Assembly (NCBI GenBank): GCA_022709525.1 | Contig: JAKLIQ010000002.1 | Location: forward strand, 128,984 to 192,983 | Source of the DNA: Candidatus Omnitrophota bacterium | Lineage (GTDB): Bacteria > Omnitrophota > Omnitrophia > Omnitrophales > Aquincolibacteriaceae | Direction: 5' to 3' | Length of the DNA: 64,000 bases | Shown here: positions 1,958 to 35,890 of the stretch, piece after piece | Layout of the letters: each line of letters opens with the position of its first letter | How positions within the stretch are numbered: position 1 is the stretch's first letter | Made by a program: the position numbers and the translations under genes | The notes under the pieces: generated by a model | The model's input: only the letters and a program-made list of their open reading frames with translations | What the model was told of the DNA's origin: nothing | Databases searched by the model: none

Positions 1958-1963
1958 CCTTCG

Positions 1964-2776: not shown

Positions 2777-2790
2777 AACACCCCTCCGCT

Positions 2791-4728: not shown

Positions 4729-4734
4729 TCTGCG

Positions 4735-7197: not shown

Positions 7198-7262
7198 GGT
7201 AACCCTCCGAATTAAAACGCTAATTCAAACCTTTCATTAGTAACGGAATAATCAGGTTTTCC

Positions 7263-9792: not shown

Positions 9793-10527
9793 TTATAAGA
9801 CCGGCTTATTGTTAATGATCGTTTCGGGGCCCGGCACCATCGGATGGGCCGGAATCAGGACGCCGTCCTGAAGGCGATAGGAACGATCGTGGCGAAACGC
9901 TGTTTCTTCGTCATGCGTTACGATTAAAAACGCCTGGCCTTCCTGCTGGTTCAATTCGTTGATAAGCGTCATGACCGACGACGCGGTCTCAGGATCCAGG
10001 TTCCCCGTCGGCTCGTCGCAAAGCACGACTGAGGGGCGGTTCACAAGAGCCCGCGCGATCGCCACGCGTTGCTGTTCTCCGCCCGAAAGCTCGGAAGGAA
10101 AATGGGTCCTCCGGTTCCAGAGACGAACGCGTTTCAGCACCTCCTTGACCCAGGGCTTGTTCGGCTTGTTCGCGATCAAGGTCGGTAAAAGGACATTTTC
10201 ATAAACGGTCAATTCCGGCAAAAGATGATAAAACTGGAAGACAAACCCCACCTGCCGGCTGCGCAATCTCGCCAGCTCCCTTTCCGACATCTCCGTCATA
10301 TCTTTCCCTTCAAAAAAGATCTTGCCGTCCGTCGGGCGGTCCAAGCCGCCTAAGACATGCAGCAAAGTCGATTTCCCGCATCCTGATTTTCCCGTGATAA
10401 AAACCATTTCACCTTTCCGGATGATCAGCTGCACCGAACGGAGGATCTCAAGGGTACCGGCCGGAGTTTCGTAATTGCGACGGATATCGAACGCGCTGAG
10501 CAAAGGGACATCGACCACGTTACTCAT
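9793..10527 (-). CDS. lolD: Lipoprotein-releasing ABC transporter ATP-binding protein LolD
   Basis: Walker A motif [12 protein letters not shown] signature [15 protein letters not shown] and Walker B motif VLCDEPT are present. It overlaps the FtsX-like permease upstream by 8 nt. Confidence 0.8.
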
Positions 10528-15165: not shown

Positions 15166-16311
15166 ATGCAGATCTTGGCAACAGCGATCACGGGTTTACT
15201 TTTTTTCCTTCTGGCGGGATGGATCTACCGCAGCGGACGGGCGCTCTCCGAACTCAAACAGGCCCCCGCGTTAAAATTGAAATTGCCGGTATCCCGCACC
15301 GGAAGAGTTTCTGTCCTGATCCCGGCGAAAAATGAAGAAAAAAATATCGCGGATTGCGTCCGGCCTTTTCTCTCCCAGCTGCACGAGGGCGATGAGATCC
15401 TCGTGATCAATAACTACTCGGAAGACAGGACGGAAACGATCCTCCGGGAACTTGGCGCCGATGAGATCCTGCCCGACGGTTCCGGACGGAATTTAAAATT
15501 CCGCTACCTTAACACCCCCCAAACCCCTGAAGGATGGACCGGCAAGAATTTTGCGCTCCATCTCGGAACCCAGTGCGCCTCGGGCGACTGGTTTTTTTTC
15601 ACCGACGCCGACACCCGCCATGAACCCGGAAGCGTTGATACCGCTCTCGCGTTCGCGGAAGCCCGTCAGCTCGATCTTTTGACGCTCTTGCCGCGCTGCA
15701 TCACGGGAAGTTTCTGGGAAGATGTGATCCAACCTTGCGCGATGGGCTATATGGGGCTCTGGTTCCCGATCCGCAAGGTCAATGACCCCGCATCCAAAGC
15801 GTATTTCGGGAACGGACAATACCTGCTCATCCGCGCGGACCATTACCGAAAGATCGGCGGGCATGCCGCGGTCAAGGACGCTTTTCTTGAAGATTTTGCG
15901 CTCATGAAAAAAACGAAGGAGACCGGGGCGTGGGGCATGTGCGCATTCGGCATGGAGATCTACGGCACACGCATGTACGATTCTTTTGATGCCCTTTGGC
16001 GCGGCTGGCGCCGCATCTTTCTGCATGCGTTCGAGCAAAAACCGTGGCCCATCCTGCGACGCGCGCTAAGCGTTTTTTTGTTTTCGCTTTTTCCCGCGTT
16101 AGCCCTGCTCACCCTGCCGCACGGCCTTTCGCTTTCGCTTTGCCTTTTGATCCTTGCGATCGTTTTCGCAACAGCCGCCAAAACGCACGCGATCGTCAAA
16201 GCCAAGAAACGCTACGCGCTCCTTCACCCACTGGCGGCGCTCGTCTTCACGGGGATCCTTCTCGACGCTTTCCGCATGGCCATTCTCAAGCACCCGACCC
16301 GCTGGCGTTAA
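15166..16311 (+). CDS. Family 2 glycosyltransferase (membrane-anchored, GT-A fold)
   Basis: An N-terminal TM helix is followed by motifs VLIPAKNEE and DADT and a C-terminal polytopic region. The gene converges on the lipid operon. Confidence 0.7.
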   Translation: MQILATAITGLLFFLLAGWIYRSGRALSELKQAPALKLKLPVSRTGRVSVLIPAKNEEKNIADCVRPFLSQLHEGDEILVINNYSEDRTETILRELGADEILPDGSGRNLKFRYLNTPQTPEGWTGKNFALHLGTQCASGDWFFFTDADTRHEPGSVDTALAFAEARQLDLLTLLPRCITGSFWEDVIQPCAMGYMGLWFPIRKVNDPASKAYFGNGQYLLIRADHYRKIGGHAAVKDAFLEDFALMKKTKETGAWGMCAFGMEIYGTRMYDSFDALWRGWRRIFLHAFEQKPWPILRRALSVFLFSLFPALALLTLPHGLSLSLCLLILAIVFATAAKTHAIVKAKKRYALLHPLAALVFTGILLDAFRMAILKHPTRWR

Positions 16312-16725: not shown

Positions 16726-17823
16726 TCAGATCGCCAGGTAACCGACTTTTACGGCATAACGGACAAGGGTCTTGAGGAACGCATCATCCGTTTTCGGCAT
16801 GGAGATCCCGGTCCCGCGCAGGATCTCGCGGGTGTTCGTCGTGTCAAAAGTCAGCTGTCCGTTCAAATAACCCAGATAGGGCTCCATCATCGAAAAAACC
16901 ATCTGCTCCTGCGGGTTCATTTTACTCTTGGAAAAATGTTTGGGATCGATGACCTCGATCGGAGGAACGGCCGAATAATCTTCTTTTCCCATTTTCAGGA
17001 GCATCCCGATCGAAGGCGGTTTTGGCGCCACAACGTGGAAGGCTTTGTTGACGCTCCGAGGGTCTTTTACGATCGCACAAGTGGCCTTGATCACGAAATC
17101 GATGGGAACGATGTTGAAGGTGTTCTCGGGATGGGTCGGGATCTTCGAGAGAACCCCGTGCGCGAAGAGTTTGATAAAAGGGTAGATGACATTGAATTCC
17201 GAGACCTCGCCGGTCTCGGAATGGCCGACCACGATGCTGGGCCGGATGATCGTGACCGGAAGACCTTTCGCCATCGCTTCGCGCACTTTGGTCTCGGCCT
17301 TATACTTACTTGACTCGTAATAATTCGCGAAAACAGGTTTGGCAGGCAGCTCATCTTCCTTGGAGCAATGATCCCAGACGCTACCGGCTACGAAGGCCGT
17401 GCTGAAATAAATAAAACGCTCGAGCTTTCCCTTCTTTTTGAGGTCCCAGGCGAGTTCCAGCGCGTGCTCGGTACCGCCCACATTGATCTGCTGGCACTCT
17501 TTTTCCGTCCCGTTCAAGGCAGTCAACGCGGCGATGTGATAAAAAGTCTTGCATTCGTGCTCGAGGTATTCTAGATCAGCTTTCTTGATACCGAATTTAT
17601 GATGCGTGACATCGCCTTCGATCACATGAATGCGGGATCCAAGATGAGAATCAAGACCGATCGAGGTGAGGATCTTTTCGACGCGCTCCTTGTGGGTCAT
17701 CCGGTTCTTGGCGCGCGCCAGAACAGCGATCTCGACGTCAGTGGTCTTGAGGAGTTCCTTGACGAGCTCCTGCCCTAAGACGCCGGTCGCGCCGGTCATA
17801 AAGATCAAATTACGTGCCATCAT
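16726..17823 (-). CDS. Thioester reductase / fatty acyl reductase-type SDR (NAD_binding_4, male-sterility family)
   Basis: The nucleotide-binding motif FMTGATGVLG and catalytic motif YYESSKYKAE (YxxxK) are present. The gene overlaps the KS gene by 14 nt. Confidence 0.75.
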   Translation of the reverse strand: MMARNLIFMTGATGVLGQELVKELLKTTDVEIAVLARAKNRMTHKERVEKILTSIGLDSHLGSRIHVIEGDVTHHKFGIKKADLEYLEHECKTFYHIAALTALNGTEKECQQINVGGTEHALELAWDLKKKGKLERFIYFSTAFVAGSVWDHCSKEDELPAKPVFANYYESSKYKAETKVREAMAKGLPVTIIRPSIVVGHSETGEVSEFNVIYPFIKLFAHGVLSKIPTHPENTFNIVPIDFVIKATCAIVKDPRSVNKAFHVVAPKPPSIGMLLKMGKEDYSAVPPIEVIDPKHFSKSKMNPQEQMVFSMMEPYLGYLNGQLTFDTTNTREILRGTGISMPKTDDAFLKTLVRYAVKVGYLAI

Positions 17824-19111
17824 ATCTCCTTAAAGCCAAACAAATATTCTGCCCGCCGAAGCCGAAGGAATTTGACAATGCTATCTGAACATTGGACCGT
17901 CTTGCCGTGTTCGGCACATAGTCCAGATCGCATTCGGGATCCGGTTCCTCATAATTGATCGTCGGCGGGATGATCGAATCGCGCATCGACAGAAAACAAA
18001 TGATCGCTTCCACAACGCCGGCGGCGGCGATCATGTGCCCGAGCATGGATTTCGTCGAACTGACGGGCACCTTGCGGGCATATTCCCCCATGACTTTTTT
18101 GATCGCGAGGGTCTCCAGGGAATCGTTCACCGCCGTGGAAGTTCCGTGAGCATTGATATAATCAATATTTTGCGGGCCGATGCAAGCTTTTTCCATCGCG
18201 ATCTCGATCGCGCGGGCCGCTCCCCGGACCTCTGGGTCCATATCCGTAAGCCGGTAGGCATCGGCGGTCGAGCCGTAACCGACGATCTCGCCGTGGATCG
18301 CGGCATGGCGTTTTCGCGCATGCTCCAGTTCTTCCAGGATCAAAGCTCCGGCGCCTTCGGAGATCACGAAACCGTCCCTTTTTTTATCGAATGGCCGCGA
18401 AGCCTTCTCGGGTTCATGGTTCCTCGTCGAGATCGCGGTCAAAAGACTGAATCCCGCAACCCCCATCGGATAGATCATGGAATGAGAACCACCGGTCATG
18501 ACAATATCCGCGTCCCCGCGGCGGATCCACTCGAAGGCCTCCCCGATCGCTTGAGAAGACGCGGCACAGGCGGTAAGGCAATTGGAAACGGGGCCCCGGA
18601 TATCAAAAAGCCGCGTCAGATGGGTCACGGTCATGAAGGGCTGGCTTTCCAATTCCCGGAGCGCGCTCATGTTCCGGAGCGCGCCCTCCACATACCGGGC
18701 CTTATCCACGATCTCGGTGGCGCCTTCGGTAAAAGAGGGTACCAGGGTCTTGATGAACGGATCAAAATCGATCCCGCTGTCACCCGCCCCAAAATAGATC
18801 CCGAAGCGGTTCGGATTGAGCGAGAGGGGCTCGAGCATGGCGTTCTTATACGCTTCGGCCGCGGCCTGCAGCGCGAAAAAAGTACTGCGGCCGGCGCAGC
18901 CAAGCGGCGGATTCCGCTCAAGCCATTTTTCGAATGAGAATCCTTTGACTTCGCCCGCAATGCGCGTCGGAAAACGGCTCGCGTCAAAAAGCGTGATGGG
19001 GCCGATCCCCGACTTGCCTTGCGTCAAGCGGAGCCAGGTATCCCGCACGGAATTCCCGAGAGGCGTCACAGCGCCCATACCGGTCACAACCACTCTGCGT
19101 TCTTTTAACAT
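17810..19111 (-). CDS. Beta-ketoacyl-ACP synthase (KS-alpha, FabF/type II PKS-like, catalytically intact)
   Basis: The catalytic cysteine motif TACAASSQAIGE and the histidine motifs NAHGTSTAVND and SMLGHMIAAAG are all present. Confidence 0.9.
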   Translation of the reverse strand: MLKERRVVVTGMGAVTPLGNSVRDTWLRLTQGKSGIGPITLFDASRFPTRIAGEVKGFSFEKWLERNPPLGCAGRSTFFALQAAAEAYKNAMLEPLSLNPNRFGIYFGAGDSGIDFDPFIKTLVPSFTEGATEIVDKARYVEGALRNMSALRELESQPFMTVTHLTRLFDIRGPVSNCLTACAASSQAIGEAFEWIRRGDADIVMTGGSHSMIYPMGVAGFSLLTAISTRNHEPEKASRPFDKKRDGFVISEGAGALILEELEHARKRHAAIHGEIVGYGSTADAYRLTDMDPEVRGAARAIEIAMEKACIGPQNIDYINAHGTSTAVNDSLETLAIKKVMGEYARKVPVSSTKSMLGHMIAAAGVVEAIICFLSMRDSIIPPTINYEEPDPECDLDYVPNTARRSNVQIALSNSFGFGGQNICLALRRYDGT

Positions 19112-20388
19112 TTTTTGAACACCAAGGATGCGTTTTGGCCGCCGAAGCCGAACGTGTTGAGCAGCGCTATTTTGACATCGCAGGACTTTGCCTTATCTTT
19201 GACAAAAGGCAGCGGGCACTCGGGATCCGGGTCTTTAAGATTGGTCACGGGCGGGATCTGCCCTTTTTTCGTCGCGAGAACCGTGATCACGGCTTCCGCG
19301 CTACCCGTACCGTAAACCAAATTCCCCGTCACCGGCTTTACTGCCGTCACATGAAGCTTTTTAAAACTCGAAGAATAAAACGAGTGGACCGCAAGCGATT
19401 CCTGGACGTCTTCCTGCGGAATGCCGCTCCCGTTCGCCATCAAAAGATCCACGTCGGACGGCTCAAGCGCGGCGTCCTCAAGGGCCCTGCGGATCGCGAC
19501 GCGCTTACCCGCAAAGTCATCGGGGTCGCGCGGATCATAATTAAAATCCGAAGAAGACCCGTAACCCGCGACCTCCGCATAGACCGAAGCCCCCCGTTTT
19601 TTTGCGCTCTCCAGTGATTCCAGGACAAGGATGCCGGCGCCTTCGCCCAAAACGATCCCGTCGTGTTTTCGATCGAACGGCGTATAGGCTTTTTCAGGCG
19701 ACGTTTCTTTGGCGGAAAGAAACCCGAGGAGTTGAAAGCGGGAAACGCCCATGGCGTTCAATTTAGAATCCGTACCGCCGGCCAGCATGATATCGGCGTC
19801 ACCGCGTTCGATCACGCGGTACGCTTCCCCGATCGCCTGAGTCGCCGCGGCCGAAGAGGTCGTGATCGTATTATTGGGGCCGCGCAGCTGATTGGCCACG
19901 GAAATATGACAAGCTGGCATGTTCGGAAGATACTTCAGGAACCATAGCGGAAAAAGCGACCGGATCCCGTCTTGGCCGAACTTGGTCATGGAAAAATGCC
20001 CGTTCTCGTCCAGTCCGTTCCGAAATCCCACTCCCACTTCATCGAGATCGTTATTGATGATACCGGTGCCGAGGATCACGCCGATGCGGGTTGGATCGTA
20101 ATTTTCTTTGGAAAGTTTCGCGTCCCTAAGCGCCAGACAGCTCGCCGACACCGCCATTTGGATCTCGCGCGACATCAATTTGATGGACTTGCGGTTCTCG
20201 ATGAATTGCTTAGGATCGAATTGCGGGAGCATCCCCGCGTATTTGAAGGAAGGTCCCATCCGAAGCGGCTCGGCGCTGCGAACAGCGGAACGGCCGTGAA
20301 CGGCGGCATCCCAATAAGGTTCCCAACCGATCCCGCAGGCGGTAATGACGCCGAATCCCGTGACGACAACGCGACGCTTGGAGGTCAT
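19105..20388 (-). CDS. KS-beta / chain-length-factor-like ketosynthase paralog (catalytic Cys and both His replaced)
   Basis: The protein has a KS fold, but the active-site motifs are altered. TTSSAAATQAIGE carries Cys to Ser, LMANGSGIPQ carries His to Asn, and VTGNLVYGTGSAE carries His to Asn. It overlaps the KS-alpha gene by 7 nt. Confidence 0.8.
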   Translation of the reverse strand: MTSKRRVVVTGFGVITACGIGWEPYWDAAVHGRSAVRSAEPLRMGPSFKYAGMLPQFDPKQFIENRKSIKLMSREIQMAVSASCLALRDAKLSKENYDPTRIGVILGTGIINNDLDEVGVGFRNGLDENGHFSMTKFGQDGIRSLFPLWFLKYLPNMPACHISVANQLRGPNNTITTSSAAATQAIGEAYRVIERGDADIMLAGGTDSKLNAMGVSRFQLLGFLSAKETSPEKAYTPFDRKHDGIVLGEGAGILVLESLESAKKRGASVYAEVAGYGSSSDFNYDPRDPDDFAGKRVAIRRALEDAALEPSDVDLLMANGSGIPQEDVQESLAVHSFYSSSFKKLHVTAVKPVTGNLVYGTGSAEAVITVLATKKGQIPPVTNLKDPDPECPLPFVKDKAKSCDVKIALLNTFGFGGQNASLVFKKC

Positions 20389-20822
20389 GAGGATTGAACG
20401 ACCTTTTCGCGGACTTTGAAATGATCCATGAAAGCGTCATGAAAGGTAACGGATTTTTTTTGCGAAGAAGAGAGCCCGTCGACGGCCATTAAAAGAAGTT
20501 TTGCGCGCGCCACCGGGCCTTCCGAACAAGTAATCGTGGCTTCAAGCCATCCGCCTTCAGACCCGAGACTTTCCGACCACGCCTCAACCTGAAGAGGTGT
20601 TCCGGGCTTTGGAACGCTCGTCACGGTAGCGCTTTCGATCTTGGCGAAGATGAGATCTTTTTGATAGTCGCTTTCCGCGCCGACCAAAAGCCCGCCCGTT
20701 TGGGCCATCATTTCGATGAAAAGGACCTCCGAGCTGTAGGGGGCCTGCGGGACTTTAGAGGATGCGGTCGCCTTTTTGCCGCGCTGGATCGAATGGACTT
20801 TTTCAAGAAGAAGCCAGCGCAT
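20385..20822 (-). CDS. Hotdog-fold FabZ/FabA-like protein lacking the catalytic His (probable non-catalytic dehydratase partner)
   Basis: A helix motif EMMAQTGGLLVG is present. There is no HxxGxP His motif. Confidence 0.5.
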   Translation of the reverse strand: MRWLLLEKVHSIQRGKKATASSKVPQAPYSSEVLFIEMMAQTGGLLVGAESDYQKDLIFAKIESATVTSVPKPGTPLQVEAWSESLGSEGGWLEATITCSEGPVARAKLLLMAVDGLSSSQKKSVTFHDAFMDHFKVREKVVQSS

Positions 20823-20823
20823 A

Positions 20824-21207
20824 TCATCTCCAGATCATGGCCTGCGCGCCGACAAGATCGCCGCTCCGGAAAAAGTGCCCTTCGCCGCGATAAAACTTCC
20901 GCGTCCGGCCTGCGCGCCATTCCATTTCAAAATGATCCCCCGCGCGCTTCTTGATCCTCATCCCCTGGAAACCTTCGAGGCCCATCCAGGATTCCCCGCA
21001 AGCCTTAAAGAACGCCTCCTTAGCCGTAAAAAGTTCCGCGAATTCCTGGAGTGAAAGTCGCTTGAACGAACGGCGCTCGGAGGGATTGAGGAAGCGTTCG
21101 CGAACATAGTCTTTATGCCGGGAAAGAAACTCTTTAACGCGGCCGCGGGATATGAGATCGACGCCGACGCCGCGAAGCGCGGTGGTTTTTTGTTTTACGA
21201 GCAGCAT
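20824..21207 (-). CDS. AcpS-type 4'-phosphopantetheinyl transferase (cluster-associated second copy)
   Basis: A 127-aa protein with motifs GVGVDLI and FTAKEAFFKA. The canonical acpS is at 59996..60376. Confidence 0.7.
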   Translation of the reverse strand: MLLVKQKTTALRGVGVDLISRGRVKEFLSRHKDYVRERFLNPSERRSFKRLSLQEFAELFTAKEAFFKACGESWMGLEGFQGMRIKKRAGDHFEMEWRAGRTRKFYRGEGHFFRSGDLVGAQAMIWR

Positions 21208-21608
21208 TTATCGGAGCAGGAATTCTTGCCCAAGCGGTCGGTCAGATAACGGAGAAGCATCTTGACCGTGAAACAATCGGCCAGCTTTGTGATCTGAGGG
21301 TCTTTTTTGAATTCATCAAGCTCAAGATAAGGAAGTTTTGTCCGAAGCTCCGTGAGGCCCTCAGCTGTAACCACGCCCTCTTTGACGAAACGTTCGTCAT
21401 TGAGGAGATGGCTCGGGAAGAGATCGCCGGCCGGGATCTTGAGATCGAAGGCCTTTTCGAGACGAAAGACGATGTCGATAAAATCAATGGATTCGGCCCC
21501 CAGATCCCGCTTCAGGGAAGCTTCCGGGGTGACCTCGGATTCATCGACGCCGAGCGCTCCGGCGAGTGTTTGCTGCACTTTCGCAAAAAGTTCTTTCTCC
21601 ATGATCAT
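21195..21608 (-). CDS. Acyl carrier protein with ~55-aa C-terminal extension ending in Cys-rich CSDKCCS
   Basis: The phosphopantetheine attachment motif DLGAESIDFID is present. A good SD (AGGAAGGA) lies upstream. Confidence 0.75.
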   Translation of the reverse strand: MIMEKELFAKVQQTLAGALGVDESEVTPEASLKRDLGAESIDFIDIVFRLEKAFDLKIPAGDLFPSHLLNDERFVKEGVVTAEGLTELRTKLPYLELDEFKKDPQITKLADCFTVKMLLRYLTDRLGKNSCSDKCCS

Positions 21609-21630
21609 TCTTTCGTCCTTCCTAAGTTGT

Positions 21631-22038
21631 CTATGACAATGGTGATGGCTGAGGATTTTTAACTTTGGCCAGCGTCAGTTTGGCCGACACGGCAACTTCG
21701 CCGTGATAATACAACTTTGCGTCCCAGGTCGTCTCTGCGTCCGTTCCCTGCACAAGCGTCAGGCGGCTTTCCCAATCATCGCCCGGCCTGAGGTATTTCG
21801 TGAACCGGGTGGCCCGTATTTGTTTTAAGAAATAATGCTGCCCTGCACCGCCCTTTAAGGAATCCAAATAACGTTCGGCGGTCTGTTTCAGCATTTCAAG
21901 CGCCAGAACTCCCGGCAGCACCGGAAATCCCGGAAAATGATCTTGGAAGAACTCCGAGTCTTCGGGGATGCGGCCGCAAGCCGTGATCCCCTCACCTTCC
22001 TTGGCCCAAAGTACCTTCTCGATCGCGAGTTTTGTCAT
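21631..22038 (-). CDS. FabZ-like beta-hydroxyacyl-ACP dehydratase (hotdog, catalytic His present)
   Basis: The active-site motif reads FFQDHFPGFPVLPGVLALEML. Confidence 0.8.
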   Translation of the reverse strand: MTKLAIEKVLWAKEGEGITACGRIPEDSEFFQDHFPGFPVLPGVLALEMLKQTAERYLDSLKGGAGQHYFLKQIRATRFTKYLRPGDDWESRLTLVQGTDAETTWDAKLYYHGEVAVSAKLTLAKVKNPQPSPLS

Positions 22039-22042
22039 GATC

Positions 22043-22723
22043 TCATTTTTTCTCTAGCACATAGACCCCGTTCAAAATGCGAAATCCGGCAAGCCAGGTA
22101 TAAAAATTTTTAAAGGAAGCCACTTTAAAACCTGCCGTCCCAAAAAACCCCCTCCACGCTTCATCCGTGCGAAATTGATGCGGATGAGACATGAACTCCA
22201 CGTTCAAGAGCCGGTCCCGGACGATCGTCCAGAACCGCCCGAGCGCATGATGATAAAGGTCCTCAACGACAATGACTTTGCTGCGCGTTACCCGGCGCAC
22301 TTCTTTAAAAAGCGCTTCCGGGTCCGGGACATGATGAAGCATCGTCACAAGGATCGTCACATCAAAACTTTGATCCGGGAACGGGATCCGGGATCCGTCA
22401 TAGAGCATGACCGGGACTTTTTGATACCCGGGTTTTACCACATCCAGCACCAAGGACTCATGTCCGCGCTTGCGTAACGGCTCGGCATAAAACCCCCAGC
22501 CCCCGCCCAAATCCAAAATGCGGGAACCCGGAGAAAACTCTTTCTCAAAAAACCGTACGATATTTTCGGCGCGCGCCTCAAGGGCGCGATGGACAAAACG
22601 GCTTACAATCCCATCCAGCGCCAGGCGCTGGAAACCTTGCAGGCTTTTTTTGATTGAGTTCACGATGCTGGTCGTTCTGTTTTTGAGCGGAGAATTATAG
22701 CATAGGGCGTCTTTTTGCCCCAA
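22043..22723 (-). CDS. Class I SAM-dependent methyltransferase
   Basis: Motif I reads ILDLGGGWG. An acidic residue follows the beta2 strand (VLDVV). Confidence 0.7.
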   Translation of the reverse strand: MGQKDALCYNSPLKNRTTSIVNSIKKSLQGFQRLALDGIVSRFVHRALEARAENIVRFFEKEFSPGSRILDLGGGWGFYAEPLRKRGHESLVLDVVKPGYQKVPVMLYDGSRIPFPDQSFDVTILVTMLHHVPDPEALFKEVRRVTRSKVIVVEDLYHHALGRFWTIVRDRLLNVEFMSHPHQFRTDEAWRGFFGTAGFKVASFKNFYTWLAGFRILNGVYVLEKK

Positions 22724-22842
22724 GAATCTTTTTTGATGCCAACCTCCGTCCCCGGTTTATCCTTTTTCCTTCCGATTTCATTTGATATCTGCTATCTTAC
22801 CCACCATCCTGGCTTTTGTTTTCATATCATTAATGGCTGCCA

Positions 22843-22889
22843 GGATGACCCCAATTTCAACTTCATTAAAATTGAAAGGTATTGGGACC
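22843..22889 (+). promoter_or_regulatory. Copy C of a conserved ~48-nt element ending exactly at the fabL-like ATG
   Basis: Read as GGATGACCCCAATTTCAACTTCATTAAAATTGAAAGGTATTGGGACC, followed directly by ATG. See findings for the three-copy comparison. Confidence 0.6.
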
Positions 22890-23648
22890 ATGACGAATCC
22901 GCTGAAAGGCAAAGTCGCTCTCATTACAGGGGCTTCCCGGGGCATCGGACGAGCCATCGCCCACCGCTTGGCCGAAGACGGTGTTCATATTGCGGTCAAT
23001 TATCTTCAGAATGAAGCGGCCGCGAAAAAGACCGTTGAAGAGCTCCAGGCCAAGGGCGTCAAAGCCGAGGCCTTCCAGGCGAATGTCGGTGATCTCGATA
23101 CTCACAATCCCCTGCTTGAAAATGTCCTCAAAACCTTCGGAACGCTGGATATCCTGATCCACAACGCGGCGCTCGGCGCTTTCAAGCCTGTTCATCGCCT
23201 TAAGATGAACCAGTGGGATCTTTCCATGGATATCAACGCTAAAGCGTTCCTGGCGCTTACTCAAAAAGCGCTTCCGATCATGGAAGCGAAAAAGGAAGGC
23301 ATCATCATCGCTCTCTCAAGTCTGGGCGCGCACCATTTTATCCCCAACTACGGTGCTATCGGGATCTCCAAAGCCGCGATCGAAACCACGGTCCGCTATC
23401 TCGGCGTGGAATTAATGCCGAAGGGCATCAGGGTGAACGCGGTTTCAGGCGGGCTCGTCGATACGGATGCGTTGAAATCATTCCCGTTTTTTGACGCTTT
23501 TAAGGAAGAGGTTTTAAAGCGGACTCCCGCCGGAAGGATCGGAAAACCCGAGGATATGGCCCGCGTGGTCGCGTTCCTTTGCTCCCCGGAATCGTCCTGG
23601 ATCGTCGGCCAAACCCTCATCGCCGACGGCGGACTTTCCCTCATCTAA
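22890..23648 (+). CDS. fabL: FabL/FabI-type enoyl-ACP reductase (SDR with Y-x6-K)
   Basis: The nucleotide-binding motif GASRGIGRA is present. IPNYGAIGISKAAIETTVRYLG resembles FabI [22 protein letters not shown]. The start was chosen at the ATG that has the conserved upstream element. Confidence 0.75.
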   Translation: MTNPLKGKVALITGASRGIGRAIAHRLAEDGVHIAVNYLQNEAAAKKTVEELQAKGVKAEAFQANVGDLDTHNPLLENVLKTFGTLDILIHNAALGAFKPVHRLKMNQWDLSMDINAKAFLALTQKALPIMEAKKEGIIIALSSLGAHHFIPNYGAIGISKAAIETTVRYLGVELMPKGIRVNAVSGGLVDTDALKSFPFFDAFKEEVLKRTPAGRIGKPEDMARVVAFLCSPESSWIVGQTLIADGGLSLI

Positions 23649-30254: not shown

Positions 30255-30330
30255 GGTGGGCGTAGCTCAATTTGGTTAGAGCACAAGATTGTGGATCTTG
30301 GGGTTGCGGGTTCAATTCCCGTCGCCCACC
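30255..30330 (+). tRNA. tRNA-His (anticodon GTG) with encoded G-1
   Basis: Cloverleaf read by eye as GGTGGGCGTAGCTCAATTTGGTTAGAGCACAAGATTGTGGATCTTGGGGTTGCGGGTTCAATTCCCGTCGCCCACC. Confidence 0.85.
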
Positions 30331-30346
30331 CTTTTAAAATATCCTC

Positions 30347-30889
30347 ATGCACCGACTCATTGCGATAAAAAAAGTTAGCGACATTCCTTCATTCTACCGC
30401 CGCAGCCCCATCGGCCGGCTGCTGGAGTACCATAATCTGGGGCGTCCTTTCGAAGACTACTCCCATGCGCAACTCTTGGTCGGCATGTGCATGGACCATC
30501 GAAAATACCTCCATATCCCGGACAATTTCGCCTTTATCATGCGGACCGGCGGCGCCAACCTCCGGTATAGCGAATTCAAGGTTTCTTACGCGATCGCTGT
30601 AGGCGGCGTTTCCGCGATCGCCCTGATCGGGCACGACCAGTGCGGCATGGTCAACCTCGCCTCCCGGAAAGATCTTTTCATTAAAGGATTGGTAAAGTAC
30701 GGCGGCTGGAAGAAAAAGGACGCCGAAGAACATTTTCTGAGTTCGTTTATGAAATTCGAGATCGGTCATGAGGCCGATTTTGTCTTAAGCGAAGTGAAGC
30801 GCCTCCGCCTGCGATACCCCAAAGTCAAAGTCGCCCCCATGATCTACAAAATGAAGGACAACCGGCTCTACCTTTTAAAGGAAAAATGA
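30347..30889 (+). CDS. Beta-class carbonic anhydrase-like protein
   Basis: The zinc-ligand motifs CMDHR and HDQCGM are present. Confidence 0.55.
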   Translation: MHRLIAIKKVSDIPSFYRRSPIGRLLEYHNLGRPFEDYSHAQLLVGMCMDHRKYLHIPDNFAFIMRTGGANLRYSEFKVSYAIAVGGVSAIALIGHDQCGMVNLASRKDLFIKGLVKYGGWKKKDAEEHFLSSFMKFEIGHEADFVLSEVKRLRLRYPKVKVAPMIYKMKDNRLYLLKEK

Positions 30890-30905: not shown

Positions 30906-32732
30906 ATGACTTTAAAAAAAATAAGATCCATTTTATTCCTGGCCCTGTTCACGGCGCTCGCCGGACGGCTTTTCGCCGGGACTCCGCCTTCCCCCGAGAC
31001 GACCAAAGGCCCGCTTCCCGATTCCCAGGTTCTTTTGATCTTTGTTGACAGTCTCCGGCCTGACATTGTGGACCTCATGGTTGAAAAAGGCCGGCTTCCT
31101 AATATTAAAAAATTCTTCTATGATAAAGGCCTCCGCTTTCAGAATTTTTTCAGCACATTCCCCTCTTTGACGGTCAATGCCTATACCTGCCTCATAACGG
31201 GAAAACGCCCCGATCAATCCGGGCTTAAAGCGCAGTCTCTTTTCGAGCGATTCCCTACGCGCAAGAAAAACATCATGAAGCGGATGTTCTTCATCCCCGA
31301 GAAATTCCCCCGCTATTTCAATATGCTCACCAACGTGGAAAAGGCGCCGGCGGTCCTGAAGCAGAATAAGGCCAAGGCCCTTTACGATTACCTCGGGGAG
31401 AAATACCACACAGCCCTTGTCCCCGTCAGCCCGTCGGCGATCCCCTGGGCTTGGCCCCATGTCGCCTCCAACGAAGTCGACCACGCTTATTTTGTCACAA
31501 CAGAGGCGCCGGCGATGCTGGACGATCTGAACGGAAAATATGCGGTCCGTTACATGGTTCCGGATACCCGGGCAAAACTCCTTATTGTTTGGTTCACCTT
31601 GCTGGATGAAGAACAGCACCGGCGCGAAAGGGGGCAATTTGACGAGGCCGTTCAAAAGGAAATGGACAATGTCGACGAATGGCTCGGAAAGATCTACGAC
31701 GGGCTTGTCAGAGAATCGAACGGCCGCCAACCTTATGTGATCCTATTTTCCGACCACGGCGCGTACGGCGGGCAAAATGGCGTCTATAATCAGCCCTATT
31801 ACATCGGACGTGATCTTTTCTATCGGATATTCAAGATGAACGTCCGTGGCCCTGATTATACGATCAGCCACGCCGGAACCGATCTTGCGTCCTACGCCTA
31901 TATTGACAATATGGGGCGCGGCCAAGCGCGTATTTTCTTACCGGCCGGCGACAGCACCTCCGGGAATTGGGAACGACCGAACACTTTCTATGAACTGACT
32001 CATTACGGCCTGGGGCCTAACCGGAAACCCGTGGATCTTGTCAGCGAACTTTTAAATATTAATTTAGAGTCCCGGAACAAATTCCCCGGAACGATCGATC
32101 CCCATCCTATCGACCTCCTTTTTGTAAAACTCGCCGAAGATCTGGTCTACGTGGCGCGCCGCGGCGGCATCGAAGCGCTGATCGAGATCGGTCGTGAGGG
32201 CGAGCATCTGCGGTACCGCTACAGGCCGATCCGGAATTTCTCGCAGGACCAGACCGGACAATGCACTTTTGAGGAAACCTCTTCAGCGGATCCTTTTGGT
32301 TATTTGACGGACCCGAAATTCCGCGCTGAGGATCGGGCTGCGTTTCTCCAGGAATTTCATGACGACCGGGAATGGCTGGAAGCGACTTATGAAACCGCTT
32401 ATCCCGATGCCGTCACGGCTGTGGCCCGGGCCCTGTCCTGGAAACCCGAACTTTCTCATTTGGCCCGGTCGCAGGATCCCGACCTCTGGATCTCCGCCGC
32501 GTCTGGGTGGAACTTCAGGATCGAAGACATTAACGGCGCGGACCACGGCGCGATCTTAAAAGACGCGCTTCGATCCACCTTAATGCTCTCCGGACCTCAC
32601 ATCCGGACCGGGACCGAATCAGCGCCCCACCGCCTTATCGATCTGACGCCGACCCTGATGCAGCTGGTCGGTTATAAGAAAAAAACAGACTTTGACGCGG
32701 CTGCGATCGAAAATATCTATGAGAACGCCTAA
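30906..32732 (+). CDS. Secreted alkaline-phosphatase-superfamily phosphodiesterase / nucleotide pyrophosphatase-like protein
   Basis: A signal peptide is followed by motifs DSLRPD and FPSLTVNAYTCLITG, which resemble the NPP/type I phosphodiesterase family. Confidence 0.65.
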   Translation: MTLKKIRSILFLALFTALAGRLFAGTPPSPETTKGPLPDSQVLLIFVDSLRPDIVDLMVEKGRLPNIKKFFYDKGLRFQNFFSTFPSLTVNAYTCLITGKRPDQSGLKAQSLFERFPTRKKNIMKRMFFIPEKFPRYFNMLTNVEKAPAVLKQNKAKALYDYLGEKYHTALVPVSPSAIPWAWPHVASNEVDHAYFVTTEAPAMLDDLNGKYAVRYMVPDTRAKLLIVWFTLLDEEQHRRERGQFDEAVQKEMDNVDEWLGKIYDGLVRESNGRQPYVILFSDHGAYGGQNGVYNQPYYIGRDLFYRIFKMNVRGPDYTISHAGTDLASYAYIDNMGRGQARIFLPAGDSTSGNWERPNTFYELTHYGLGPNRKPVDLVSELLNINLESRNKFPGTIDPHPIDLLFVKLAEDLVYVARRGGIEALIEIGREGEHLRYRYRPIRNFSQDQTGQCTFEETSSADPFGYLTDPKFRAEDRAAFLQEFHDDREWLEATYETAYPDAVTAVARALSWKPELSHLARSQDPDLWISAASGWNFRIEDINGADHGAILKDALRSTLMLSGPHIRTGTESAPHRLIDLTPTLMQLVGYKKKTDFDAAAIENIYENA

Positions 32733-33813
32733 ATTAGCGGCTCTTATTTTTTGGGTCTTTTTTTCTTTTATTCCTGCGGCTTTCGCGCTGACGGCAGTCG
32801 AGGATTCCGCCGAAGACCTCTATTGGTCGGACCCGATGACGGTCCATGATTACAAGAAAAGATCCGACCTCCACAGCATTTCAGTCTCGGCCCTGGCAAC
32901 CACCGAGCTTGAATTCGTCAGACTTGGGGACGGGCTGATCCAATTGATCGCCCGGAACAAACGTAGCCCCATTTCCCGGTCGCTTGACACGCTGGAATAC
33001 GCTTATTCCAAACTTCCCCGGATCGAACCGGTCCGGCGCTTTGGGCAATTATGGGATGCTTTGCAGCTTCGCCAGCTCTCTTTATCCGACGCCCGTATCG
33101 CCGGCTCCGTGCTGTTCGGCGGCAGCTTCGGCAGCATCACGCCGATGATGCAGGTGCGCGTCCATAACCTTTTTGTCTGCATTGAGGATATCCTTTATGA
33201 TATCGACGGCGCGGTCATGTATCCTTTCAATTGGGGTATTTCTACGCTGCGCGAAAAACCCACGCAGGTCAAAAGTTTGGGTTACGCCGTTGACGGCCTC
33301 AGCTTCCTGCGCCAGCATATTTCGTCGGTTCTGAAATACGTCAATAAAAAGGTCGTCCGCGCCAGTTCCGAGATCGTCATGAGCATTGAAAAGACCCACG
33401 ACGCCATGATCCGGAGAAAGCTGAAAAAACAACGCGGACATTTATTGATCTATTCGAAAATGCCGGTTTCCGTTTTTGAAAAAAACCGCTCCTATTTTAC
33501 CACCGACAAGGGCCGGGTTTCGGCGGGAACGCTCGACGAATGGTATAAAAAGATCTTTACCAATCCTGAGCTTTTGCCTGAAGACGTGCGCGACGCCGAT
33601 CTTCTTGCTGTCAAAATCACGGCGGAAGAGGATCCATCGCAGGAGATCATCGTTGCGGCGGAATACCGGGTCTGGGATGAGACCCCCCGCGAACTTAAAA
33701 AATATGTCATTACCTCCGATGAATTCCGGGAACTGATCAAATCCTATGACGCGCCTTCCCCGGCGGCGCCCTCGGCCCCAGAAATCACTTGCAAAATCGA
33801 TCATCCTCTGTAA
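32719..33813 (+). CDS. Hypothetical secreted protein
   Basis: The signal peptide reads MRTPKLAALIFWVFFSFIPAAFALTA. No family was recognised. Confidence 0.45.
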   Translation: MRTPKLAALIFWVFFSFIPAAFALTAVEDSAEDLYWSDPMTVHDYKKRSDLHSISVSALATTELEFVRLGDGLIQLIARNKRSPISRSLDTLEYAYSKLPRIEPVRRFGQLWDALQLRQLSLSDARIAGSVLFGGSFGSITPMMQVRVHNLFVCIEDILYDIDGAVMYPFNWGISTLREKPTQVKSLGYAVDGLSFLRQHISSVLKYVNKKVVRASSEIVMSIEKTHDAMIRRKLKKQRGHLLIYSKMPVSVFEKNRSYFTTDKGRVSAGTLDEWYKKIFTNPELLPEDVRDADLLAVKITAEEDPSQEIIVAAEYRVWDETPRELKKYVITSDEFRELIKSYDAPSPAAPSAPEITCKIDHPL

Positions 33814-33833
33814 ACTCCCTTCATTAATCATTT

Positions 33834-35081
33834 TTGCTCCGAAAAACGGGGAACATGAATAATCCTGTCCGCTCTCCTAAAAACACGCTGCTTGCCAGGA
33901 TCGAAGCGCTGAACTGTCGGATCCAAGAGGCCAAAAAACGCGACCTCTATCCTTACATGCATTCCTCCGACGCTGTCGACGGCGTTCACATCACGATCCG
34001 TGGCAAGCCGATGCTCCAATTCTCCTCCTATTCCTACCTCGATCTCCTGGGACACCCCAAGATCAATGCGGCGGCCAAAAAGGCCCTTGAAGAATTCGGA
34101 ACAGGCACTCACGGCGTCCGGTTCCTGACCGGGACCACACGCATCCACCAGGAGCTTGAAAAAAAGATCGCGTCATTTAAAAAAACCGAGGAGGCGATCG
34201 CGCTTTCCACGGGTTACGGCGCCAATTGCGGGACTATTTCGGCGTTGCTGGGTCGAAACGACACCGTGATCTCCGATAAGGTCAATCACGCGAGCATAGT
34301 GGACGGGTGCATCTTATCGCGCGCGCAATTCGTCCGCTTCGAACATAATGACATGGCCTCGCTTGAAGAATCGCTCGAAAAAGCGCCGAAAAAAGGGGTG
34401 AAACTTGTGGTCGCTGATGCTGTCTTCAGTATGGACGGCGACATTATTAATCTTCCGCAAGTAATCCGTCTCTGCCGCAAATTCAAGGCCCTTCTTATGA
34501 TCGACGAGGCGCATTCGCTTGGGGTCCTCGGAAAAAAAGGTACCGGGATCGAGGAACATTTCGGGATCGACCCGGCCGAAGGCTTGATCGATATCAAGAT
34601 GGGAACTTTGAGCAAAACGATCCCTTCGATCGGCGGTTATATCGCCGGCAATTCGAAGCTTGTTAATTTCCTAAAACACTCGATCCGTCCTTTTATCTTT
34701 TCCGCTTCCCTGCCGCCGGCCTCCGCCGCGGCCGCCAAAGCATCATTTGAGGTCATCGAGGAAGAAACATGGCGTATTAAAAAACTCCACGAAAATATGC
34801 ATTATTTCCTTAAGACGCTCCGAATGAACGGTTTTACCACGCTCCAAAGTCAAAGCCCCATTGTCCCGATCATTATCGGCGACGACGCAAAGGCCTTGGA
34901 GATGACCCGCCTCGCGAGACAAGAAGGGATCTTTATTGTGCCGATCCTTCCCCCTGCCGTGCCGCCTCATACAACCCGCATCCGGACAACGGTAACCGCG
35001 GGCCATTCCCTTCAAGAGATCGAGCGCGCCATCAATGCCTTTGCAAGGATCGCAAGGTCGCTCGGCATCATTAAACCGTAA
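33834..35081 (+). CDS. Alpha-oxoamine synthase (PLP), serine palmitoyltransferase-like
   Basis: The sequence has a fold-type I AOS fold. NHASIVDG is present. The PLP lysine motif GTLSKTIPSIGGYIAG is of the S-K type seen in bacterial SPT rather than the G-K type of BioF/Kbl. Confidence 0.7.
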   Translation: MLRKTGNMNNPVRSPKNTLLARIEALNCRIQEAKKRDLYPYMHSSDAVDGVHITIRGKPMLQFSSYSYLDLLGHPKINAAAKKALEEFGTGTHGVRFLTGTTRIHQELEKKIASFKKTEEAIALSTGYGANCGTISALLGRNDTVISDKVNHASIVDGCILSRAQFVRFEHNDMASLEESLEKAPKKGVKLVVADAVFSMDGDIINLPQVIRLCRKFKALLMIDEAHSLGVLGKKGTGIEEHFGIDPAEGLIDIKMGTLSKTIPSIGGYIAGNSKLVNFLKHSIRPFIFSASLPPASAAAAKASFEVIEEETWRIKKLHENMHYFLKTLRMNGFTTLQSQSPIVPIIIGDDAKALEMTRLARQEGIFIVPILPPAVPPHTTRIRTTVTAGHSLQEIERAINAFARIARSLGIIKP

Positions 35082-35113
35082 CCTCCGACAGCCATCCTTC
35101 AAAGGAAGGATCC

Positions 35114-35890
35114 ATGATAAAAAGCTACGTTTTAATTACCGGCGCTTCCGAAGGGCTCGGCCGCGAATTAGCCAGGATCTTTTTCCGGAATGGGCACTCT
35201 CTGGTCTTGGTCGCCCGCAACCAGGCCCGACTCGAAGAACTTGCCAAGGCACTGAACCCCAGCGATCTTTCCATGATCAAAATCCTTACCGCTGACCTAT
35301 CGACCCCTGACGCTGCCGATCAATTGAAAACAACTCTCGATAAGCTTGGTCTGGAAATAGGGGTCTTGGTCAATAACGCGGGATCCGGCCTTCATGGTTT
35401 TTTTTATGAAACGGATTGGAAAGCCACGGAAGCCATGCTGAATCTTAACATGGTCTCTCTCACGCGGCTGACGCGGCTCCTTCTTCCAGGCATGATCCGC
35501 CGGGGCCGGGGAAAGATCCTGAATATCGCGTCCACTGCCGCCTTCCAGCCCGGACCTTTTATGGCCGCTTATTTCGCCTCCAAAGCTTGTGTTTTATCCC
35601 TGACAGAGGCTCTTGCGGAGGAGCTTGCAGGGACCGGCGTTACCGTCACTGCCTTTTGCCCGGGACCCATACGAACTCAATTCCAGACAAGATCCCATAC
35701 CGAAAATATCCGGGAAAACGCTTTTGCCATGGACGCCCAAGACGCCGCGCGGGCCGCTTACCGGGGGCTGCTTCGATCCAAACGCCTTGTGGTCCCGGGC
35801 TGGGTGAATAAGCTTTTGGTTTTCCTGGTCCGGCTTTTTCCCCGCCGGATCGTGGTCCGGGCGGCCCGTTTTTTCGAGGAAAAGTGTTGA
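35114..35890 (+). CDS. Classical SDR oxidoreductase (3-ketodihydrosphingosine reductase-like)
   Basis: The nucleotide-binding motif TGASEGLGRE and catalytic motif YFASK (YxxxK) are present. It lies directly downstream of the AOS. Confidence 0.7.
   Translation: MIKSYVLITGASEGLGRELARIFFRNGHSLVLVARNQARLEELAKALNPSDLSMIKILTADLSTPDAADQLKTTLDKLGLEIGVLVNNAGSGLHGFFYETDWKATEAMLNLNMVSLTRLTRLLLPGMIRRGRGKILNIASTAAFQPGPFMAAYFASKACVLSLTEALAEELAGTGVTVTAFCPGPIRTQFQTRSHTENIRENAFAMDAQDAARAAYRGLLRSKRLVVPGWVNKLLVFLVRLFPRRIVVRAARFFEEKC

Follow-up and report, generated by a model that had tools for sequence, protein, structure and literature searches.

The locus described here, from an uncultured Omnitrophota bacterium, consists of four co-directional ORFs on the + strand (positions 30906-35890) of a 64-kb window, that is, of the whole stretch of 64,000 nucleotides that was analyzed. 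We consider it probable that these genes make up two units that are adjacent by happenstance. One unit, an SPT-like alpha-oxoamine synthase (AOS) together with a classical SDR, would begin the formation of sphingoid long-chain bases with two reactions, in the eukaryote/Bacteroides order. The AOS, a PLP enzyme in the cytoplasm, would condense a long-chain acyl thioester (CoA or ACP) with a small amino acid, L-serine being the likeliest, to give a 3-keto long-chain base and CO2, and the SDR, probably NADPH dependent and membrane associated, would reduce the 3-keto group to yield a sphinganine-type amino alcohol. For N-acylation and the head group, the genes would lie elsewhere or the enzymes would be of an unrecognized kind. 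The other unit, an NPP-like protein and an orphan protein, would be an exported enzyme of two subunits that belongs to the alkaline-phosphatase superfamily, a phosphodiesterase or a phosphotransferase that probably acts on envelope phospholipid or phospho-head-groups.

Table 1. Features of the locus and its upstream neighbor (window coordinates)
Feature	Coordinates	Strand	Properties
beta-Carbonic-anhydrase-like	30347..30889	+	180 aa; CxDxR and HxxC motifs; Pfam Pro_CA 24 bits, below the 25.7 cut-off
NPP/AlkP-superfamily phosphodiesterase-like	30906..32732	+	608 aa; Pfam Phosphodiest 2.4e-18; N-terminal signal-like segment
Orphan secreted protein (putative)	32692/32719-33813	+	373/364 aa; no Pfam; N-terminal signal-like segment
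SPT-like alpha-oxoamine synthase (AOS)	33834/33855-35081	+	408 aa from ATG 33855 (public annotation), 415 aa from in-frame upstream TTG 33834; Pfam Aminotran_1_2 7.5e-62
Classical SDR	35114..35890	+	258 aa; Pfam adh_short 7.5e-48, 163 bits

All four ORFs of the original prediction were found on the + strand when read from the sequence (Table 1). The NPP and orphan genes overlap by 14 nt, and gaps of 41 nt and 32 nt separate the orphan from the AOS and the AOS from the SDR, respectively. The AOS and SDR genes are adjacent and co-directional and therefore probably form an operon. The Pro_CA-like gene accompanies the locus in close relatives, where it lies upstream in L097 and L107 only; no evidence of a role for this neighbor was found. 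A lipid cluster 10 kb away had been suggested as the source of an acyl-ACP for the AOS. The cluster is real (16726-23648) and lies on the strand opposite to the locus, with secA, prfB and tRNA-His in between. None of its components recurs near the AOS in the loci of other genomes, and a link between the two found no support and is speculation.

An SPT-like identity of the AOS, in preference to Kbl or BioF, is supported by its position in the tree, its diagnostic residues and the gene context of its relatives. Like the Bacteroidota SPTs (S. multivorum, PDB 3A2B/8GUH; B. fragilis BF2461; B. thetaiotaomicron BT_0870), it is a fold-type-I enzyme with all PLP-binding and catalytic residues. The Schiff-base Lys, stacking His, Asp-x-x-His and carboxylate-binding Arg expected of such an AOS are present, and PLP-Lys254, His145, Asp217, His220 and R377 are invariant across the family. 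The protein contains GTLSKTIPSIGGYIAG. The S-K context of the lysine, which had been called typical of bacterial SPT, is not specific to it: T-L/F-S-K also occurs in every labelled Tdh-linked Kbl and in the Thermus BioF/Kbl. The best matches in both the PDB and NCBIfam were to SPTs, namely, the S. multivorum enzyme (321 bits) and the SerpalmtaseCFB model, although the curated NCBIfam SPT cut-offs were all missed (CFB 442/640 bits, beta 324/500, alpha 284/670). Identity to SPT is ~42% (about 40-42%) and to Kbl ~40%, which is a slight margin.

In a neighbor-joining tree of 98 sequences, the AOS fell inside a super-clade with the validated Bacteroidota SPTs and ceramide-gene-adjacent AOSs (bootstrap, 92%). 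Trees restricted to labelled taxa recovered the same super-clade at 80-83% with three distance measures; all of these values come from neighbor joining only, without maximum likelihood, and from taxon sets without alphaproteobacterial SPT, ALAS or CqsA. The super-clade excludes BioF (the E. coli and Alicyclobacillus enzymes lie outside it) and the Tdh-linked Kbl clade, which includes the Thermus enzyme. Among its members are AOSs adjoining GNAT and NAD-epimerase genes, the bCerS/CerR architecture. The AOS itself belongs to a separate subclade that is joined by Chloroflexota sequences. A robust grouping with Kbl or BioF, and the rest of those pathways nearby, had been named as the outcome that would speak against an SPT; the AOS grouped otherwise.

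Inspection of the primary structure revealed Ala at S. multivorum position 274, where SulA has Lys and Kbl/BioF have Thr/Asn. This position is informative, as Ala versus Lys (Lys281 of cysteate acyltransferases) separates Spt from SulA (PMC9304779). Tyr25/Tyr27, G80 and L84 are likewise common to the AOS and SPT; Tyr27 belongs to the wall of the acyl site in the S. multivorum structure (PMC10196870). A274, Y25 and Y27 are found throughout the clade of the AOS. The pocket, with the signature Y52/H79/V81/P247, differs from this pattern. The Bacteroidota SPT pocket reads N52/C-A-G-S/N85/F114/A247, and that of the AOS reads Y52/T78-H79-G80-V81/T85/Y114/P247. The canonical SPT loop G-S-R-x-L-N, in which Ser81 and Asn85 contact the substrate carboxylate and water, is absent, and the AOS has G-V-R-F-L-T instead. 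V81 and T/A85 are Kbl-like, and H79, Y114 and P247 are unique. Because the pocket differs from that of canonical SPT, serine specificity of the AOS is not assured.

The gene neighborhoods of AOS relatives were also compared. Relatives at 53-63% identity (L006, L030) adjoin a DAGK-family lipid kinase gene, with or without a methyltransferase gene, and this neighborhood matches that of the validated Bacteroides SPT locus (L091, L092; BF2461/BF2462 in PMC3712910). In L032 and L054, a CerR-like epimerase gene adjoins relatives from the AOS clade. No bCerS, CerR or DAGK kinase gene was found within the 64-kb window. The nearest Chloroflexota relatives of the AOS show housekeeping synteny only. Another Omnitrophota genome carries a second, different AOS in a different cluster, and this protein groups near BioF (L043 with L060).

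The SDR carries the TGxxxGxG, NNAG and YxxxK motifs and an S-Y-K triad; an Arg follows beta-2, the C-terminal tail is hydrophobic, and there is no signal peptide. The original prediction, that a YxxxK SDR following the AOS would fit 3-ketosphinganine reduction, was strengthened by comparative data supporting the SDR as a real, conserved partner of the AOS. SDR orthologues adjoin AOS orthologues in L105, L109 and L110, in both gene orders and with different neighbors, and 20 AOS-SDR orthologue pairs share a contig, compared with ~0.8 expected by chance. The AOS also occurs with no adjacent SDR at several Omnitrophota loci (L004, L097, L099). We regard the SDR as a candidate NADPH-dependent 3-keto long-chain-base reductase. 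For a classical SDR as bacterial 3-KDS reductase there is a precedent in BT_0972 (PMC9278070). That enzyme and eukaryotic KDSR/TSC10 are, like the present SDR, classical SDRs of ~30 kDa with Gly-rich and YxxxK motifs, and they and the present SDR are likely NADPH dependent and membrane associated. BT_0972 is not clustered with SPT, in contrast to the SDR reported here, whose gene adjoins that of the AOS in many lineages. No specific similarity of the SDR to characterized KDSR was detected; its best PDB match, 4BMV (117 bits), is a generic SDR, and its score against the NCBIfam mycolate reductase model (181 bits) is under the cut-off of 380. CerR was considered as an identity for the SDR and rejected: the protein matches adh_short and not Epimerase, a CerR-like query aligns over 39 aa only, and there is no signal peptide. 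Because the SDR is classical and has no signal peptide, reduction before acylation is implied. On balance, it is plausible that the pair makes sphingoid long-chain bases as eukaryotes and Bacteroides do, by an SPT followed by a KDSR.

Several known systems resemble this pair in part. Relative to the Bacteroidota enzymes, whose SPT-DAGK kinase-methyltransferase neighborhood recurs around its relatives, the AOS stands apart in its identity, sub-cut-off score and subclade. A parallel in concept to its clade is the "Spt-like" clade B of Ding et al. (2024, ISME J, PMC11334938), which lies outside classical SPT yet groups with it. Clade B AOSs, some linked to CerR/bCerS, occur in many anaerobic phyla, including Chloroflexota (PMC11334938); Omnitrophota are not mentioned in the main text or the available supplementary files of that study, which also did not consider a classical-SDR partner such as the one that pairs with the AOS here. 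The Caulobacter-type Spt-bCerS-CerR pathway has a first enzyme of the same family and likewise builds its lipid on a long-chain base, but it continues with a GNAT-type bCerS and an epimerase-type CerR, neither of which is encoded in the window. The capnine/sulfonolipid pathway also pairs an AOS (SulA/CapB) with an SDR, the 3-ketocapnine reductase. A cysteate acyltransferase was nevertheless rejected as the identity of the AOS, which has Ala in the column equivalent to Lys281 and matches the solved cysteate acyltransferase at a lower score (205 bits).

The NPP-like protein scored 67 bits against Pfam Phosphodiest (cut-off, 23 bits), the family of bacterial NPP (Xanthomonas NPP, PDB 2GSN) and ENPP, and the motifs for the metals and the nucleophile align with those of Xac NPP. 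It retains the nucleophilic Thr as well as six metal ligands, and D48, T89, D234, H238, D283, H284 and H547 are invariant across orthologues, fused ones included. It is ~220 aa longer than Xanthomonas NPP, with a beta-rich insertion and a long C-terminal extension after the catalytic core. Both AlphaFold models were of low confidence; Foldseek with a poor model also returned NPPs only. No relatives of the orphan protein were found in Pfam, NCBIfam or the PDB, and it is represented by only 35 clusters among 5.8e9 proteins and by 41 among 1.84e9 representatives. In all contexts sampled, the orphan gene immediately follows the NPP gene; the stop and start codons usually overlap, with 11-14 nt shared by the two genes, and in distant relatives the orphan is fused to the NPP-like C terminus (P0176, P0182, P0183, P0191). 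These observations suggest that the two proteins form one exported enzyme, of which the orphan would be an obligatory partner or subunit. Unlike Xanthomonas NPP, the NPP-like protein thus appears to need, or is fused to, a domain with no known relative. From the gene data, the two would constitute a previously undescribed two-part secreted phosphodiesterase, separate from the AOS-SDR pair.

Alternative readings of the AOS-SDR pair were weighed against this explanation. Use of a substrate other than serine, with glycine or alanine giving 1-deoxy-type bases or another small amino acid giving an unusual head group and no true sphingoid base, is unlikely. The differences from structurally characterized SPT at substrate- and water-contact positions (Y52, H79, V81, T85, P247) are in its favor, as is the abundance in anoxic waters of 1-deoxyceramides, whose synthesis has been ascribed to Spt-like enzymes (PMC11334938). 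However, the same pocket signature and G-V-R-F-L-T-type loop occur in AOSs adjoining CerR-like epimerase genes (L032, L054) and sphinganine-kinase-like DAGK genes (L006, L030), Tyr52 is a known variant in genuine Spts (PMC9304779), and cysteate is disfavored by Ala, not Lys, at 274. We judge a housekeeping role of the AOS as Kbl, BioF or a Thermus-like bifunctional BioF/Kbl, with the SDR as an unrelated neighbor, to be very unlikely. In favor of such an enzyme, the scores against the bioF (411 bits; cut-off, 426.45), BioF/Kbl subfamily (406 bits) and Kbl (401 bits; cut-off, 460) models are high, those for bioF and Kbl being little short of the 442 bits for SPT; the Thermus BioF/Kbl ranks third among PDB sequence matches (307 bits, after two S. 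multivorum SPT entries); and V81 and A/T85 are Kbl-like. Both identities were rejected. The bioF and Kbl cut-offs, including that of a second Kbl model (335/493 bits), were not reached, and the AOS lies outside the BioF and Tdh-linked Kbl clades and carries Ala274 and Tyr25/27. As originally predicted, it is not in a biotin or threonine operon: no tdh or bio genes are among the annotated genes around the locus. The conserved AOS-SDR pairing would also be left unexplained, and the BioF-like AOS of the other Omnitrophota genome is a separate protein. CAI-1 biosynthesis also pairs an AOS with an NADPH-dependent reductase, and the product might by analogy be a diffusible alpha-hydroxyketone or amino-ketone signal of the CqsA/LqsA kind. 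This is extremely improbable, since the CqsA match is very weak (103 bits, compared with 321 for SPT, in the PDB; 196 compared with 442 in NCBIfam) and no cognate sensor kinase gene is adjacent.

The original prediction placed all four genes in a single module. The NPP-like and orphan genes are indeed present upstream, but one module is not established, because these two are fused in distant relatives and are found with no AOS nearby in 4 of ~10 distinct contexts (L094, L095, L096/L104, L102/L108). It is possible, though we think it a minor possibility, that the exported pair acts on the AOS-SDR lipid (periplasmic sphingolipid head-group addition or removal) or remodels phospholipids in parallel. 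Adjacency of the two units persists in one Omnitrophota sub-lineage through at least four arrangements (NPP-orphan-AOS-SDR, NPP-orphan-AOS, AOS-NPP-orphan and AOS-SDR-NPP-orphan), and 11 AOS-orphan pairs fall on a common contig, compared with 0.2 expected. Elsewhere, neighbors of the NPP pair are often membrane-lipid genes, such as MlaEFD (L004), AsmA/YhdP-like and GDSL lipase genes (L095), or plsY-gpsA with a CDP-alcohol phosphatidyltransferase gene (L098). The animal NPP family includes lipid phosphodiesterases, namely, the alkaline sphingomyelinase ENPP7 and autotaxin (ENPP2). However, that sub-lineage is the only one in which the NPP-orphan pair adjoins the AOS, and PEPCK-MetH-UvrC synteny is conserved in it, so the adjacency may be merely inherited. 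The fused form in L098 also has no AOS nearby, and L109 and L110 show AOS-SDR with no NPP-orphan. A more specific proposal, which we consider rather doubtful, is that the NPP-orphan pair is a new two-component or fused periplasmic phospho-head-group enzyme for the AOS-SDR sphingoid lipid, either a nonhomologous sphingophospholipid synthase or a sphingomyelinase-like remodeler; if true, the ultra-small Omnitrophota would have in these four genes a new bacterial route that leads to phosphosphingolipids or starts from them.

On the preferred reading, of two separate units, the NPP-orphan pair would be a clean case of an uncharacterized, lineage-restricted exoenzyme whose parts are tied together by gene order and fusion. 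The AOS-SDR pair would be a compact two-gene unit. Bacterial sphingolipid schemes comprise Spt, bCerS and then periplasmic CerR in Caulobacter, and Spt with an unlinked classical-SDR reductase in Bacteroides, where it is debated whether acylation or reduction comes first (PMC11087976). A conserved pair of Spt-like enzyme and classical SDR that has neither bCerS nor CerR in its vicinity would provide genetic evidence of a reduce-first route outside Bacteroidota. No papers linking Omnitrophota to sphingolipids were found in the searchable literature. If the assignment is true, the Omnitrophota, which are ultra-small and possibly host dependent, would join the candidate sphingolipid-producing phyla, which would matter for the interpretation of sphingolipid and 1-deoxyceramide signals from the environment.

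The alpha-oxoamine synthase (AOS), the classical short-chain reductase (SDR) and the two ORFs for secreted proteins lie where the original prediction placed them, all on the + strand and in the order listed in the table below. Database entries for the AOS begin at an ATG, and the 415-aa ORF proposed earlier corresponds to an upstream TTG start. The window comes from a Candidatus Omnitrophota MAG; for AOS, SDR and the orphan secreted protein alike, NCBI and JGI have entries under the name Omnitrophota that match at 100% identity (contigs up to 334 kb). The AOS and SDR genes are codirectional with a small gap and therefore probably form an operon. A promoter/terminator scan returned fewer sites than shuffled sequence and was uninformative; the Rfam scan gave tRNA-His as its sole match. 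The carbonic-anhydrase-like ORF is divergent, carries the zinc motifs CMDHR and HDQCG, and accompanies the locus in two relatives (L097 and L107; L handles denote loci in other genomes). A 183-aa ORF 5' of the AOS in L109 was considered as its counterpart and rejected as unrelated. Elsewhere in the window (450-8504) are the lipid-trafficking proteins MlaD/MlaF/MlaE and DUF748/AsmA-like; next come a ClpC-like ATPase and an ATP:guanido phosphotransferase that resembles the protein arginine kinase McsB. Several Omnitrophota loci are flanked by giant ORFs (predicted products, 7,000-10,000 aa) that are nearly devoid of Pfam matches.

Features of the AOS locus, the lipid cluster and loci with giant ORFs
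Feature	Position	Strand	Remark
HpnB/CruG-like glycosyltransferase (GT2)	15166-16311		beside lipid cluster
Lipid cluster	16726-23648	opposite to AOS	stand-alone thioester reductase (R-domain), two FabF-like ketosynthases, 145-aa unknown, PPTase, ACP, FabZ-like dehydratase, DVU_1556-family methyltransferase
Divergent FabL-like enoyl reductase	within 16726-23648		
tRNA-His	30256-30331	+	Rfam scan; directly 5' of carbonic-anhydrase-like ORF
Beta-carbonic-anhydrase-like ORF	30347-30889	+	180 aa; Pro_CA match just under cut-off
Phosphodiest/NPP-type protein	30906-32732	+	608 aa
Orphan secreted protein	32719-33813	+	364 aa; no Pfam or NCBIfam match; 14-nt overlap with NPP stop codon
AOS	33855-35081	+	408 aa from ATG
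Classical SDR	35114-35890	+	258 aa
GTP-dependent PEPCK	after SDR	+	
Giant-ORF locus L004	14900-17236		
Giant-ORF locus L094	8146-15035		
Giant-ORF locus L096	8515-15056		

Curated models do not decide the identity of the AOS: it scored 442 bits against SPT-CFB (cut-off, 640), 411 against BioF (cut-off, 426), 406 against the BioF/Kbl subfamily and 401 against Kbl. Among PDB sequences the top match was the S. multivorum SPT (321 bits), followed by Thermus BioF/Kbl (307), Coxiella Kbl (271), S. paucimobilis SPT (245), BioF (about 204-220), cysteate acyltransferase (205), ALAS (195) and CqsA (103). The S-K context of the PLP lysine, offered originally as a mark of SPT, does not discriminate, because Kbls linked to Tdh likewise have T-L-S-K.

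In order to obtain function-labelled references, neighbors were clustered at 80 loci from named genomes; this set comprises Chloroflexota and more distant AOSs among the matches listed, the closest Omnitrophota being absent. Among those matches, 11 AOSs adjoin threonine dehydrogenase and were labelled Kbl on that ground, and 6 adjoin an approximately 370-aa GNAT and/or an approximately 330-aa NAD-epimerase, the published Spt-bCerS-CerR architecture, confirmed with Pfam. L009 (57% identical) was rejected as a Kbl context: it lies in a Tdh cluster, with the Zn-ADH-like ORF six genes off rather than adjacent. We added Escherichia coli BioF and Kbl, BioF of the Alicyclobacillus bio operon, Bacteroides and Parabacteroides SPT, and three PDB sequences. 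In the resulting neighbor-joining tree (98 sequences, 393 columns), the query family falls inside a 60-leaf superclade that holds all SPT references and all SPT-context sequences and no Kbl or BioF (bootstrap, 92%); an inner clade of the query family with the CerR-linked L032 and L054 had 93% support. When the tree was limited to labelled taxa, three distance corrections gave 80-83% support for the separation of SPT from Kbl/BioF. The AOS thus groups with SPT when set against BioF and Kbl, as the original prediction held. This support is moderately strong without being decisive, given raw identities of about 42% with SPT and about 40% with Kbl. A second, different AOS type occurs at L043 and L060 (about 10001-11155), in one MAG each of Omnitrophota and Planctomycetales; it belongs to a conserved six-gene cluster (c56-c57-AOS-c58-c59-c60-c61) and lies near BioF in the tree.

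Active-site columns were tabulated with papers on the S. multivorum structure (PMC10196870) and on SulA (PMC9304779) as guides. This revealed that Tyr25/Tyr27, Gly80, Leu84 and Ala274 of the AOS also occur in SPT and are absent from Kbl and BioF. Tyr27 belongs to the wall of the acyl site (PMC10196870), and position 274 is the single residue separating Spt (Ala) from cysteate acyltransferases (Lys) (PMC9304779); Kbl and BioF carry Thr or Asn there. Unlike canonical Bacteroidota SPT, the AOS has Tyr52, His79, Val81, Thr/Ala85, Tyr114 and Pro247, of which Tyr52 is a known Spt variant (PMC9304779). Because this pocket signature recurs in L032 and L054 and in L006 and L030, which are linked to the lipid kinase DAGK, the AOS is a member of a second, divergent Spt-like subclade.

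Downstream of the L006 AOS (62% identical) lie a DAGK_cat/YegS_C lipid kinase and a methyltransferase, and L030 likewise has the kinase. The same partners are found at the SPT loci of Bacteroides finegoldii and Parabacteroides distasonis. On the Chloroflexota-like contig of L006 (8001-10970) the AOS-DAGK kinase-methyltransferase trio mirrors the Bacteroides/Parabacteroides SPT-DAGK-methyltransferase loci L091 and L092. BF2461 of B. fragilis, an SPT validated by genetics, adjoins a putative sphinganine kinase, BF2462 (PMC3712910). Most Chloroflexota relatives have LigA-AOS-RlmI/M50 synteny only, and the window contains no bCerS-like, CerR-like or DAGK gene.

The AOS and the SDR are genuine partners. 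Because L004 lacks the SDR, the gene seemed at first to be confined to a single lineage; wider sampling found the pair elsewhere too. The gene order at L105 is AOS-SDR-NPP-orphan-PEPCK (SDR, 66% identical); L109 has AOS-SDR-PNPOx in an unrelated neighborhood (AOS, 65%; SDR, 54%), and L110 has TerC-SDR-AOS with a 3-nt gap (AOS, 66%; SDR, 51%). As a proxy for contig sharing, we counted exact matches between the "longest contig" values of AOS clusters and SDR clusters and took the expectation from offset controls; 20 matches were found versus 0.8 expected. Many of the matching contigs are 2.4-6 kb long, too short for the two genes to lie apart. The SDR has TGxxxGxG, NNAG, S-Y-K, an Arg after beta-2 and a hydrophobic C-terminal tail, and its database matches are generic. 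In B. thetaiotaomicron, 3-ketosphinganine reductase activity has been demonstrated for BT_0972, a classical, membrane-associated, NADPH-dependent SDR; unlike the window SDR, it is unlinked to SPT (PMC9278070). The pyridoxamine-5'-phosphate oxidase gene directly 3' of the pair in the divergent lineage of L109 (10166-10747) may supply cofactor for the PLP enzyme. A Streptomyces "bifunctional SDR/PLP" protein (H1) was considered as an AOS-SDR fusion and rejected as a PKS terminal module. At L090 (5136-9173 on Streptomyces plasmid NZ_CP108162.1), a 1,345-aa PKS-type protein so annotated has at its C terminus an AOS domain that shares 47% identity with the query; its cluster, which also encodes a ketosynthase protein, an MFS transporter and a thioesterase, may specify a polyketide-derived amino-lipid pathway.

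The two secreted proteins also are one unit. The orphan gene lies directly 3' of the NPP gene in all contexts sampled, usually with an 11- to 14-nt overlap, and both proteins begin with signal-like segments. The orphan is represented by only 35 clusters among 5.8 billion proteins, none with a Pfam domain and all named ones from Omnitrophota. When 1.84 billion representatives were searched exhaustively with its profile, there were 41 matches. In four distant ones (P0176, P0182, P0183 and P0191) the conserved region of the orphan forms the C-terminal part of an approximately 1,000-aa protein, the N-terminal part of which is the same Phosphodiest enzyme, including the distinctive extension of the 608-aa NPP. 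At their N termini, P0176 and P0182 additionally carry a beta-rich domain of about 150 aa, preceded by a segment that serves as signal or anchor. Seven NPP positions, namely the Thr nucleophile and six metal ligands, are invariant across the orthologues, fused forms included. AlphaFold models (pLDDT, 57.5 for the orphan and 49 for NPP, the latter from a shallow alignment) were too poor for fold inference; Foldseek with the NPP model returned the NPP family only, adding nothing, and a PDB search with the orphan profile gave no match. Neighbors elsewhere include MlaEFD (L004), an AsmA/YhdP-like protein, a GDSL lipase and Pho-regulon genes (L095), and, for the fused P0176 (L098 8001-11063), der-plsY-gpsA directly 5' and a CDP-alcohol phosphatidyltransferase nearby. 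This recurrent link with membrane-lipid genes suggests that the substrate may be a lipid or head group.

Whether the AOS-SDR and NPP-orphan units act together was weighed from their distribution. In the sublineage with PEPCK-MetH-UvrC synteny they are adjacent in four different internal orders, and by the contig-sharing proxy AOS and orphan occur on one contig in 11 cases versus 0.2 expected. NPP-orphan occurs without the AOS at L094, L095, L096/L104 and L102/L108, and AOS-SDR without NPP-orphan at L109 and L110. We regard functional coupling of the units as unlikely. The lipid cluster, proposed originally as a possible source of acyl-ACP for the AOS, does exist, beyond secA and prfB. None of its components recurs near AOS or NPP loci elsewhere (flanks of ±10 kb), and the proposed tie found no support. 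It is a self-contained type II FAS/PKS-like cluster, and its gene content points to a methylated, possibly glycosylated lipid that would be released by reduction as an aldehyde or alcohol.

"Spt-like" enzymes have been proposed in 38 phyla, including Chloroflexota, as judged by linkage to bCerS and CerR (Ding et al. 2024; PMC11334938). The main text and supplementary files searched make no mention of Omnitrophota, and a literature search for Omnitrophota with SPT or sphingolipid found no relevant paper. The conserved pair of an Spt-like enzyme and a classical SDR, the distinct AOS pocket signature and the two-part NPP/orphan exoenzyme all appear to be new. The pair would imply a reduce-first route. 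Compact and open to direct testing, it offers a way into the dispute over step order in bacterial sphingolipid synthesis, with Omnitrophota added as a candidate sphingolipid-producing phylum.
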